In this document: piece after piece, positions 24,230 through 26,780 of the stretch | Layout: the number at the start of each line of letters is the position of its first letter | Numbering within the stretch: the first letter of the stretch is position 1 | Assembly: GCA_964508215.1 (NCBI GenBank) | Contig: CAZDSI010000011.1 | Span: 1-33,149 of the forward strand | DNA: 33,149 nucleotides | Direction: 5' to 3' | DNA from: an uncultured Opitutales bacterium | Lineage (GTDB): Bacteria > Verrucomicrobiota > Verrucomicrobiia > Opitutales > UBA9783 | Program-made: the position numbers and the translations under genes | Notes under the pieces: generated by a model | What the model was told of the DNA's origin: nothing | What the model saw: the letters and a program-made list of their open reading frames with translations, nothing else | Databases searched by the model: none

Positions 24230-24628
24230 TTACTTTTTAGGGTATTTTTTAGAATGTTCCAAATAGTATTTTGCCAGCGGGGAATCCTCTTCAACTTGAA
24301 CAAAATCTACGGCGATGGCTTCCTCAAAGCCTCCTTTTTGATTATATTTTTCGATTCTTTTCCGTTCGATAGATTCAAAAGGAAGGCTCTGGGTTTTTGC
24401 AATTCCGTGTATGACTTCTAAGCAATCTGCTAGCTCTTCGACCAAATTTTCTTGGCTATCGGCATCAAAAACTTCCTTTGATTCTTCGAGCAATTTTTCT
24501 TTGAAGTAGTGAAGGATTTTTTCGTCGGTTAGGTCTTTAATCAAGGTTACTTTCGCTCCTGTGTCCAACAGCATCTTGTACACTTTATCACGAATAATTT
24601 TATTAAAAAGAAAAGATTTTAAGGCCAT
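24230..24628 (-). CDS. MazG-like / phosphoribosyl-ATP-pyrophosphohydrolase-like NTP pyrophosphohydrolase
   Basis: FNKIIRDK, KLLEESKEV, EELADCLEV and KGGFEE follow the all-alpha NTP-PPase EExxE...ExxD pattern; ATG at 24628 preferred. Confidence 0.85.
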   Translation of the reverse strand: MALKSFLFNKIIRDKVYKMLLDTGAKVTLIKDLTDEKILHYFKEKLLEESKEVFDADSQENLVEELADCLEVIHGIAKTQSLPFESIERKRIEKYNQKGGFEEAIAVDFVQVEEDSPLAKYYLEHSKKYPKK

Positions 24629-24737
24629 TGCTTTTGGGTAACAGAAACTCTTGGGGCATGAAAGAAAATTTTTATGTTCAAAACAAGAAAGCCTCGCCAT
24701 GGTTTTGCGAGGCTTCATAACTTGTAATTTAAAATAT

Positions 24738-26057
24738 TTAGAAGCAGTAGCACATTCCTAATTCAACTCGATTATTTTTATCTCTACGTTCGATACCCTT
24801 ATAGGATATTTTCATATGTGATACTTCTAGTCCGACCCAGAAAGATTCCGTCCATAAATACTTTAAATTTGTAAAATAATTTTCATTTTTTTTGCGACTT
24901 GCCCCCGGTGGATTAGCCGTGTTGTAATTGTTTAAGTCGCTATCTTTTGTTGTATCGATGCCGTAGCCCAAATTCCATTCCCATTTTTTTACTGGAGTAA
25001 ACGTTAATTGTGCGAATCCACCCTGTGTGCGAATAGCCTTGCGTAGTGTGGTATTTACCCCTTGTCCGATGCCACCGTCGTACATGCTCAGATTTGCTCC
25101 TGTGAAAGCCGATAGTGTAAAGGCAACGTATTGAGTAACCGGTACATTCATTGCCGCGTTGATGCCCCATACCTTATAGCGTTCCGAAAGTGTACCGCTA
25201 CCGTTAAGCGCTACTTTTTCTCGGCCCAACACTCCTGAAAAGCTAAATTTACTTTCTTTTTCACAAAAAACTGGTGATAGATAGGCTAAATTATATTGAA
25301 GATGTGGCGTACCGCTATGCGAATGTTCGGGCCGCGATATAGCACTTTCAATTAAAAACGACCGTGATTTTTCAATTTCTATGGTTTTGCTTACTTTTGC
25401 TTGAAAATGGCGATTACCAATCACACCGCTTTGTGCTAGCCCGTTAAAGTTCAAGACTGCCGGGGTAATATTGCCAATAAGGTCGGCTGTTTGTCCAACG
25501 AGTATTCCACAGGTGTCATATTTACATTCAATATATCCATGACGTAATCGAGGCTTTAAACTGCCATGGCTAATTTCTGAATCGCCCCAAAAATCACCTT
25601 CAATGACGCCACCGGTTTGCCAACTGGAAATTTCGGGACCTGAGATTTTAACACCCAATCGTGTTGCCTTTACGGTGCCACTAAATTGCGAGGAATCGTC
25701 TGAATTACCGGACTGAGGAACGGGATAAGTAGGACCATCCTTATCGTTGGTTTGTTTAGAATCGTAGGAAGCTTGGCCATAAACGAAACCGTAAAGCTCC
25801 ATGTTTAGGTTAGCGAGTATGGGCTTTTTGGCATTGGGGAAAGTTTCTGCTAATTTTTTTTCTTCGGCTTGGGTAATGGATGTTGTATTTGATTCTGCTA
25901 AACGCTTTTCGAGATAATCAATGCGTTGCCGTAATTCGGCCAACTCTTTTTTTATTGTGGCATCATAGTCTGGTTCCGCGAAAGTATAATTTGTGAAATA
26001 CATTATACCCCATAACGCTATTACCATTAAAGCGTTTCGATTAATTGTGTCCCGCAT
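24738..26057 (-). CDS. DcaP-like outer-membrane porin with periplasmic coiled coil
   Basis: Signal region, coiled coil (ELAELRQRIDYLEKRL), YGFVYGQASYD, TRLG, IEGDF, RLRHGY, LVGQT and C-terminal Phe. Confidence 0.75.
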   Translation of the reverse strand: MRDTINRNALMVIALWGIMYFTNYTFAEPDYDATIKKELAELRQRIDYLEKRLAESNTTSITQAEEKKLAETFPNAKKPILANLNMELYGFVYGQASYDSKQTNDKDGPTYPVPQSGNSDDSSQFSGTVKATRLGVKISGPEISSWQTGGVIEGDFWGDSEISHGSLKPRLRHGYIECKYDTCGILVGQTADLIGNITPAVLNFNGLAQSGVIGNRHFQAKVSKTIEIEKSRSFLIESAISRPEHSHSGTPHLQYNLAYLSPVFCEKESKFSFSGVLGREKVALNGSGTLSERYKVWGINAAMNVPVTQYVAFTLSAFTGANLSMYDGGIGQGVNTTLRKAIRTQGGFAQLTFTPVKKWEWNLGYGIDTTKDSDLNNYNTANPPGASRKKNENYFTNLKYLWTESFWVGLEVSHMKISYKGIERRDKNNRVELGMCYCF

Positions 26058-26132
26058 GTTGCGTATCCTAAAGATAGGCTAATTTTCTGTCAAGACGACA
26101 GTAGCTTTTATGCCCAATAAAAGAGAAACGGG

Positions 26133-26780
26133 CTATTTCGAGATTTCAGTTTGGGATTCTTGTCCGGAAGGAGATGCTTCTATCGTAGCTTTTGATTCCG
26201 GTTGTGTATCTTTTAAAGCTTCCGGGTGCCTTTTCTGGAGGTAGTCGCGTAGTATTTCTGCGTGGTCAAATGCAAGCTCCGTCCAAGGGATTTCCGATAA
26301 TTTAACGACAAAAGCTTTTGCGGCATCGGTTCCGCCAATCGGAGCACCCTTAGCCTTGGCAATATGCACAATGTCGACAACATGGAATCGAGGATCTCTT
26401 TTGGGGTTTGAATAAGCCTGAAATTGTTCGATATCGTAAACACTTAAATTGATTTCTTCATACATTTCTCTTTTGAGTGTTTGTTTTAGATCTTCGCCAT
26501 ACTCAACCAGTCCGCCAGGCAAAGCTTTGCCCAGGGGCGGATTACAACGATCTATCAATATAATGCCCTGCATATTCCCCTTTTCATCAACTACTTCGAT
26601 AATACCCGATGTTGCTAAGATAGGAGCTCGATAAGCCTGCGACTTGCGATCAATGTCATCTTGTTTTTTTTGCAACTGTTCCTTTTGCAATAAAAAGTCA
26701 GCCATATGCTTTGTGGAATCTGCGCTGACAAATAAAAAGGGTATGATTATAAAGGATAAAAGAAAAAGAAATCGTTTCAT
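26133..26780 (-). CDS. Nudix hydrolase 5 with N-terminal signal peptide (ADP-ribose pyrophosphatase/NrtR-type catalytic domain)
   Basis: MKRFLFLLSFIIIPFLFVSA-DST signal; ALPGGLVEYGEDLKQTLKREMYEEINL; YSNPKRDPR and LAFDHAEIL motifs. Confidence 0.87.
   Translation of the reverse strand: MKRFLFLLSFIIIPFLFVSADSTKHMADFLLQKEQLQKKQDDIDRKSQAYRAPILATSGIIEVVDEKGNMQGIILIDRCNPPLGKALPGGLVEYGEDLKQTLKREMYEEINLSVYDIEQFQAYSNPKRDPRFHVVDIVHIAKAKGAPIGGTDAAKAFVVKLSEIPWTELAFDHAEILRDYLQKRHPEALKDTQPESKATIEASPSGQESQTEISK

Follow-up and report, generated by a model that had tools for sequence, protein, structure and literature searches.

The 33,149-nucleotide (nt) stretch of DNA analyzed here (the window; contig CAZDSI010000011.1 of assembly GCA_964508215.1) comes from an uncultured Opitutales bacterium and encodes, between positions 26780 and 24230 of its minus strand, a Nudix hydrolase with an N-terminal signal peptide, a DcaP-family porin and a small nucleoside triphosphate (NTP) pyrophosphohydrolase. 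The explanation that we favor, and hold to be probable, is that these are three independent genes: a Sec-exported Nudix, a DcaP-family porin and a separately transcribed MazG/PRA-PH-like enzyme, with the Nudix probably cleaving an ADP-ribose-like compound outside the cytoplasm. Sequence comparisons place the Nudix in a monophyletic clade, at least 26 proteins strong, whose members have all acquired a signal peptide at the N-terminus of a Nudix core of the 2YYH type; the three-gene arrangement, on the same grounds, is ordinary gene adjacency and not a conserved system.

The Nudix gene (26780-26133, minus strand) encodes 215 amino acids (aa) when the upstream ATG is taken as the start. It is separated by a 75-nt spacer (26058-26132) from the porin gene (26057-24738, minus strand, 439 aa). 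The third open reading frame (ORF) in its longest form spans 24718-24230 (162 aa). With the inner ATG at 24628 (MALKSF...), the gene runs from 24628 to 24230 on the minus strand and encodes 132 aa without signal peptide, and only with this start does the gap to the porin gene amount to 109 nt. An earlier note, made on the DNA letters of this stretch, had described three co-oriented genes for a Nudix, a DcaP-like porin and an NTP pyrophosphohydrolase with gaps of 75 and 109 nt; the ORF list and the Pfam, PDB profile and structure matches agree with this description. Co-orientation of three genes is expected in one of four cases by chance and is not significant alone.

The N-terminus of the Nudix, MKRFLFLLSFIIIPFLFVSA|DSTKH, opens with a basic n-region, which is followed by 15 hydrophobic core residues and by V-S-A at positions -3 to -1. 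Inspection shows the Sec/signal peptidase I layout (MKR / FLFLLSFIIIPFLFV / SA|D), and the Kyte-Doolittle maximum over 12 aa is 2.93. From this layout and from the homologues, the signal peptide is predicted to comprise aa 1-20 (codons 26721-26780, minus strand), with cleavage after VSA. No lipobox cysteine occurs in residues 1-79, so that the protein should not be a lipoprotein processed by signal peptidase II.

A linker of 30 residues (aa 21-50; 26631-26720, minus strand) joins the signal peptide to the Nudix core, delimited by the alignment, the hydrophobic pattern and a helix spanning residues 3-48 in the AlphaFold2 model. Its terminal motif, DIDRKSQAYRAP, is common to the aligned homologues P0002, P0003 and P0020. 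Within residues 26-50, the hydrophobic side chains fall on one 7-residue stripe (F29/L30, L36, I43, Y50), and the d positions are polar. Of the short coiled coil previously proposed for this protein, the helix is thus retained but the coiled coil is not; going by model and pattern, the linker is a polar helical tether without a canonical heptad coil.

In order to place the signal peptide in an evolutionary context, the 120 best Nudix homologues were compared and a neighbor-joining tree of the core domain was calculated. All 26 members of one clade (the window Nudix and 25 others) are extended at the N-terminus by 21-80 aa; within this extension the 12-residue Kyte-Doolittle window reaches 2.0-3.2, and the cleavage ends are mostly of the AXA type (…ISA|EQ, …VSA|AEQ, …FSAFA|EN). 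No signal-less protein falls within this clade. The segment is missing in the other 94 of the 120 proteins, most of which begin the core at residue 4-7, while a minority have an N-terminal Macro-domain or Cys-rich extension. The clear signal peptide that the earlier note had recognized finds support in the Sec-type layout conserved in 25 homologues, and the closest relatives outside the clade lack a signal peptide. ORFs re-read from the clade loci show the same signal-type N-termini. According to the genome records, the hosts are Parachlamydiaceae, Parachlamydiales and Chlamydiae metagenome-assembled genomes (MAGs) and one Puniceicoccales MAG, and the relatives include a named Parachlamydiaceae strain, HS-T3. 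The window Nudix, P0002, P0003 and the Puniceicoccales protein form a sub-clade with a longer polar linker ending in D-I/F-D/E-R/H-K-S-x-A-Y-R-x-P. Retention of the Sec signal through the Parachlamydiales/verrucomicrobial divergence points to a selected role outside the cytoplasm.

The public gene call for the window Nudix (P0001) starts at M26 and thereby omits the segment 26706-26780 and with it the signal peptide. This raises the question of whether the signal peptide arises only from reading the ORF too far upstream, the protein being an ordinary cytoplasmic Nudix with M26 as its true start, all the more as the upstream ATG lacks a strong Shine-Dalgarno sequence. However, M26 lacks a Shine-Dalgarno sequence as well, and a hydrophobic N-terminus, mostly with an AXA-type site, is present in 25 of 25 clade relatives that were called independently. 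Moreover, the motif DIDRKSQAYRAP, which is downstream of M26, is preceded by a hydrophobic segment also in P0002, P0003 and P0020, and the feature is missing outside a clade that is monophyletic. The N-termini of the homologues and the monophyly indicate that the signal is an inherited and retained feature and not an extension artefact, which we consider scarcely credible.

The identity of the core is clear from several lines of evidence. The Nudix box GLVEYGEDLKQTLKREMYEEINL (aa 90-112; 26445-26513, minus strand) was located by regular expression and by invariant columns, and the catalytic residues R104, E105, E108 and E109 are intact. It conforms to GX5EX7REUXEEXGU except for an Asn in place of the last Gly, as in most clade members. 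The match to Pfam NUDIX (PF00293, 6.6e-14) scored 52.5 bits against a cut-off of 21.1. In the AlphaFold2 model (mean predicted local distance difference test score, pLDDT, 88.5), the core has the alpha/beta/alpha Nudix fold, extends over residues 54-189 with pLDDT >90 and is followed by a low-confidence, Ser/Thr/Glu/Gln-rich tail (aa 190-215; 26136-26213, minus strand; pLDDT 58-67) that is missing in the aligned homologues. A Foldseek search with this model gave 621 matches at E<=0.001, and all 50 of the matches listed were Nudix-family proteins. The nearest solved homologue is the Aquifex aeolicus protein in PDB entry 2YYH (profile E 1.8e-56; template modeling score, TMt, 0.88-0.93), followed in the Foldseek results by the Enterococcus structural-genomics protein 2FML and then by NadM-Nudix ADPRase domains and the complex of NrtR with ADP-ribose (ADPR). 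The profile search also matched 2qjo and 3gz8.

These structural neighbors, together with a precomputed Macro domain (PF01661) in 8 of the 120 best homologues, hint at the type of substrate. Macro domains bind ADP-ribose. NCBIfam equivalog cut-offs were not reached by the Nudix, which scored 14-21 bits against 354-418 for the PRK05379 variants and 41 against 400 for NtrR, and a review of the Nudix clan lists the function of 2YYH as undetermined (PMC5389931). The ADPRase-type label originally given to the protein is thus plausible but not established, and on sequence and model it makes a reasonable lead.

The second gene encodes, as far as profile and model can tell, a DcaP-family outer membrane porin of the trimeric type. 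The match to Pfam DcaP (PF19577) covers residues 27-223 and scored 37.9 bits against a cut-off of 27. The AlphaFold2 model (pLDDT 80.9) has a signal peptide (aa 1-27), a helix (31-58) and a 16-strand barrel (aa 85-438). Hydrophobic residues in the helix (I35, L39, L42, I46, L49, L53) follow the 4-3-4-3 heptad pattern, suggesting a coiled coil at approximately aa 31-58. The best match was Acinetobacter baumannii DcaP, PDB entry 6EUS (profile 1.3e-8; Foldseek 6.9e-18, TMt 0.77). DcaP-like proteins have been described as apparently confined to Moraxellaceae (10.1101/306035), but relatives of the window porin were found in Chlorobium, in Planctomycetaceae and in a genome of the Planctomycetes-Verrucomicrobia-Chlamydiae (PVC) type. 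No dicarboxylate-catabolism genes were found near the window porin.

The third protein is, by its sequence features, a cytoplasmic house-cleaning NTP pyrophosphohydrolase of the MazG/PRA-PH-like kind. In its 132-aa form it passes two Pfam thresholds by a narrow margin (MazG, 22.4 bits against 22; PRA-PH, 21.9 against 21.3), and NCBIfam models did not match it. A word-indexed homologue search recovered only the protein itself, and HMMER was needed to find its relatives, of which an exhaustive search gave 3461. Residues E48, E49, E52, E65 and D68 are invariant and reproduce the EExxE...ExxD pattern of all-alpha NTP pyrophosphohydrolases. PRA-PH was matched in 29 of 32 members of the family, and weak PDB matches were obtained to 1vmg, 2q5z and 5ie9. 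Most of the 150 relatives listed are 130-140 aa long and align from query residue 1-6. This length and alignment identify the inner ATG at 24628 as the right start, as does the position of the 30 extra codons, which begin inside a hairpin. The public call (P0181) starts at 24718, so that its first codons (24629-24718) are those of the terminator hairpin described below. Two automated gene calls are corrected in this way, one that hides the signal peptide of the Nudix and one that runs through a terminator.

We then inspected the two spacers by sequence reading and RNA folding. On the coding strand of the Nudix-porin spacer, no T-tailed hairpin was found, and folding gave only stems of 5 bp (z -1.7). 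An AGGA within TAGGAT (26065-26070), 8 nt before the porin ATG, is likely the ribosome-binding site of the porin gene. A separate porin promoter, TTGACA-17-TAGGAT (10 of 12 positions), was discarded as a candidate, since only 8 nt separate its -10 element from the ATG and transcription from it would yield a leaderless mRNA; a ribosome-binding site is the better reading of TAGGAT, and shuffled sequences give as many promoter-like hits. As the spacer is free of a terminator, the Nudix and the porin are possibly co-transcribed, in this genome only.

The spacer between the porin and MazG-like genes is different. Starting 22 nt past the porin stop, it contains an intrinsic-terminator-like element (24680-24716, minus strand) made of a 10-bp GC-rich stem (GAAGCCUCGC/GCGAGGCUUU), a 9-nt loop and a T-run (UCUUGUUUUG). 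The element was located by reading and folding; the automated terminator scan, which accepts loops of at most 8 nt, had passed over it for this reason. A terminator-like hairpin with T-run between the two genes argues for separate units, and the MazG-like gene would be transcribed separately, after an intrinsic terminator.

If the three genes formed a functional unit, they should be found together in related genomes. We therefore compared the Nudix loci of 11 relatives by gene or ORF table. A porin was present near the Nudix in none of the 11, and a MazG gene in one (L089), where it was of another type. No porin occurs in L001-L005, L010, L081, L082, the P0016 contig, L086/L087, L088 and L089, and the genes adjoining the exported Nudix differ at nearly every locus. 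Consistently, tblastn with the window porin and the MazG-like protein gave no match in Nudix loci L001-L089. The approach from the porin side gave the same picture. Neither a Nudix nor a MazG gene was found at three porin-homologue loci (34-35% identity), and 80 metagenomic loci of porin relatives (481 kb) contained 0 Nudix-box ORFs and 0 matches to the Nudix or MazG hidden Markov models (HMMs). As a control, the same Nudix-box and HMM scan recovered all five Nudix genes and the MazG-like gene of the window. The closest Nudix relative, on contig L170 (62% identity), keeps the divergent upstream gene, but the 182 nt past its Nudix stop encode no porin, whereas the window porin starts at +76.

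These comparisons bear directly on the pathway proposed in the earlier note, in which a host metabolite enters through the porin and is cut by the periplasmic Nudix, after which the product is imported and dealt with by the cytoplasmic NTP pyrophosphatase. In favor of it, the genes lie side by side in one orientation, separated by short gaps, the porin follows the Nudix without a terminator and with a Shine-Dalgarno-like AGGA, both of these proteins are predicted to reside in the envelope, and the exported Nudix of L089 also has a MazG gene directly downstream. That gene, which starts 20 nt behind the Nudix, nevertheless codes for a canonical MazG of 218 aa with no detectable similarity to the window protein. 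In addition, the Nudix products would be monophosphates, on which an NTP pyrophosphohydrolase does not act, and the presence of five Nudix genes within 11.4 kb makes it unremarkable to find one beside any given gene here. Above all, the genes are unlinked in the relatives (0 of 11 Nudix loci with a porin; 0 of 83 porin loci with a Nudix or MazG-like gene), an outcome that the note itself had named as speaking against its proposal, and a strong hairpin with T-run precedes the MazG gene. The pathway is very unlikely in our view.

For the three independent genes that we favor instead, the Nudix calls for a role of its own. It would be exported by Sec and either cut by signal peptidase at VSA|D or, in some members, anchored by the N-terminal helix, in both cases acting in the periplasm. 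A nucleoside-diphosphate-X compound similar to ADP-ribose may enter via general porins, and the Nudix would hydrolyze its pyrophosphate bond. The products, a nucleoside monophosphate and a phosphorylated moiety, could then be dephosphorylated or imported. Such breakdown would serve scavenging or detoxification.

A possible second step is suggested by two Parachlamydiales MAGs in which a DUF2608 protein is encoded 13 nt downstream of the exported Nudix (L001, 1901-2689; L002, 6527-7348). Both DUF2608 proteins have signal peptides of their own and HAD-like DxDxC and FIDDK motifs (LVDLDNC…, GLTHR, FIDDKRKN). As the two are only 45% identical, their pairing with the Nudix goes beyond recent common descent alone, and a downstream exported DUF2608 protein in two genomes suggests a two-step extracytoplasmic breakdown. 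A literature search returned no paper that mentions DUF2608. Another candidate was dismissed. An inositol-monophosphatase-family gene abuts the Nudix gene both in a signal-bearing member, P0018 (L086, 4190-4996; L087, 3687-4493), and in a signal-less one from Thermodesulfobacteriaceae (L023, 2584-3264). A periplasmic partner is not to be seen in it, because the Inositol_P protein of L086 lacks a signal peptide and because the gene adjoins a cytoplasmic Nudix in L023.

Export might also serve a different end. The Nudix could be a secreted effector that is translocated by Sec, leaves the cell in vesicles or by a type II-like route for the inclusion or the host cytosol, and there degrades host ADP-ribose, signals derived from nicotinamide adenine dinucleotide (NAD) or other nucleotide signals. 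A host-associated lifestyle, as suggested by the NTT transporter in the window and by relatives in chlamydial MAGs, would suit this role, as would the relation of the Nudix core to ADPR-binding Nudix domains and the ankyrin/F-box protein of eukaryote-like type encoded next to the Nudix of strain HS-T3 (L003). Precedents exist as well: oomycetes, fungi and Ralstonia secrete effectors of the Nudix type (PMC4981494, PMC6637912), and the chlamydial periplasmic cHtrA can reach the host cytosol (PMC3107777). However, a Sec signal alone indicates the periplasm, and secretion-system genes were not seen among the neighbors at any locus. RipN, the known bacterial Nudix effector from the literature search, uses type III secretion and not Sec, and the pairing with exported DUF2608 in two genomes suits nutrient processing better. 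We regard the effector role as rather unlikely.

Several points weigh against the preferred reading of three independent genes with a periplasmic Nudix, and they concern different parts of it. Export is deduced from the sequence, by the rules for signal peptides, and from its conservation. For the nearest relatives, the view of synteny is partial, as the L170 contig has only 1059 bp and the porin loci leave out the closest porin relative, P0122 (65% identity). The terminator-free spacer makes co-transcription of the Nudix and porin genes in this genome possible, and the recurrence of a Nudix-MazG adjacency in L089 means that a loose association may not be pure chance. As for function, the HAD fold of DUF2608 is proposed from motifs and a weak PDB match (E 0.064), the review lists the function of 2YYH, the solved member of the Nudix family, as undetermined (PMC5389931), and the ADPRase equivalog threshold is not reached.

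The wider window is rich in genes for nucleotide metabolism. Five genes with an intact Nudix box lie within 11.4 kb and were identified by Nudix-box and profile scans: 15430-15939 (plus), 18267-18758 (minus), 19345-19779 (plus), 19849-20457 (minus) and the exported Nudix at 26133-26780 (minus). These paralogues have diverged from one another (one resembles NudE, another MutT), and all of them score below the NCBIfam equivalog cut-offs. Together with the MazG-like gene, which fits this local theme of nucleotide-handling enzymes, and a His_Phos_1 phosphatase gene (18725-19297, minus strand) in the same stretch as the Nudix genes, they represent an unusual local concentration of nucleotide-hydrolase genes. 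An NTP/NDP (nucleoside diphosphate) exchange transporter of the TLC/NTT family is encoded at 13813-15363 on the plus strand (Pfam, 600.9 bits; TIGR00769, 548.6 bits); it and the four further Nudix genes lie within 13 kb. The co-oriented cytoplasmic Nudix gene at 15430-15939 follows the transporter after 66 nt, and the pair may link nucleotide import and sanitation. From the transporter, the G+C content of the window (35-44%) and the taxonomy of the closest Nudix relatives, we infer that the organism is an obligately host-associated member of the PVC group, most likely of a chlamydia-like kind.

Two further observations were made in the same region. A gene for a LysM-domain protein with an N-terminal transmembrane-like segment (20454-20963, minus strand) overlaps the start of the NudE-like Nudix gene (19849-20457, minus strand) by 4 nt, suggesting translational coupling. 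A biotin-synthase-like radical-SAM gene (approximately 17230-18164, minus strand) is split into a 220-aa ORF that ends at 17502 (…VPINI*) and a BioB-type C-terminal part in another frame; this is a frameshift, due either to a pseudogene or to a sequencing error.

Divergent from the Nudix gene, the plus strand encodes a 704-aa protein (26881-28995) that matched nothing in Pfam, NCBIfam or PDB. Its N-terminus is kept at the same divergent position in L170 (2-202, minus strand; E 1e-5), and it is the only conserved Nudix neighbor seen. On the other side of the L170 Nudix, the 182 nt past the stop (878-1059) have a G+C content of 55%, compared with 42% in the rest of the contig, and match no window protein. 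No Rfam family was found in this GC-rich tail, even at E<=1; a structured RNA, a foreign fragment and an assembly chimera are all possibilities. In L089, a chlamydia-type contig, the region 2415-6250 contains a Nudix, a CPT/AAA_33/nucleotidyltransferase fusion, the exported Nudix and the canonical MazG, with genes overlapping or at most 20 nt apart, and adjoins the gene for an RHS/YD-repeat protein.

To our knowledge, the characterized bacterial Nudix enzymes act in the cytoplasm as house-cleaning enzymes. Our literature search found no exported bacterial Nudix described: no paper contained the phrases periplasmic, exported or extracellular Nudix, and in the top-ranked literature for Nudix with Parachlamydia, Protochlamydia, Simkania or Waddlia the word Nudix was absent. 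Signal peptides, periplasm and secretion all go unmentioned in the review of the Nudix clan (PMC5389931). In bacteria that depend on the nucleotides and cofactors of a host, the exported enzymes could scavenge dinucleotides or ADP-ribose, or they could interfere with signals that the host derives from NAD. In both cases, a further step would be added to the ways in which chlamydia-like organisms draw on the metabolites of their hosts. A bolder and quite improbable version is that the clade represents a previously undescribed extracytoplasmic class with which intracellular PVC bacteria act in the periplasm or inclusion lumen on molecules that the host makes from NAD (ADP-ribose, its isomers or derivatives), in order to destroy or to harvest them. 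In the organism studied here, the activity might even be coupled to the adjacent DcaP-type porin, with the linker docked on the periplasmic coiled coil of the latter.

Comparison with known systems shows what is shared and what is new. Aquifex O67435 (2YYH) and its relatives of about 140 aa from Aquificota, Campylobacterota and Thermodesulfobacteriota have the same core as the window Nudix (44-47% identity), including the Nudix box and the motifs PGG.VE.GE and RD.R.H. Their core is preceded by 4-7 residues and by no signal peptide, whereas the core of the window Nudix is supplemented by a signal peptide, a helical linker of 30 residues and a disordered tail. NadM-Nudix proteins (2QJO, 2QJT, 2R5W) and NrtR (3GZ8) share the Nudix fold at an identity of only 18-24%; unlike the exported window enzyme, they are cytoplasmic and fused to other domains. 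MazG, PRA-PH/HisE-like proteins, 1VMG, 2Q5Z and 5IE9 have the EExxE...ExxD pattern in common with the third protein, whose family differs from known MazG types in being short (about 132 aa) and in having a KxxRDK motif at the N-terminus and a KYPE motif at the C-terminus. A. baumannii DcaP has been published as a 16-stranded barrel with an N-terminal periplasmic coiled coil (10.1101/306035). The window porin passes the same Pfam threshold and is predicted to have both the 16 strands and the coiled coil, at an identity of about 20% to 6EUS.

Closest in logic, though not in sequence, is the use of NAD by Haemophilus. NadN is a metallophosphoesterase of the 5'-nucleotidase type and not a Nudix. 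In the host-dependent Haemophilus influenzae, NAD is processed in the periplasm by the pyrophosphatase/nucleotidase NadN and the acid phosphatase e(P4)/Hel before PnuC import (PMC10694654). This system has no homology to the window Nudix, and no PnuC-family match was present among the 24 window ORFs scanned with Pfam, so that a NAD salvage of the Haemophilus type is not indicated. Nevertheless, an exported Nudix paired with an exported DUF2608 protein, as in L001 and L002, would follow the same sequence of periplasmic cleavage, dephosphorylation and import, as a functional analogy only. With Avr3b, MoNUDIX/CtNUDIX and RipN, the window Nudix would share action outside the cytoplasm of the producer (PMC4981494, PMC6637912, 10.1101/2023.11.14.566975). 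These plant-pathogen effectors belong to other subfamilies and use an endoplasmic reticulum signal with RXLR or type III secretion, whereas the window Nudix carries a bacterial Sec signal.

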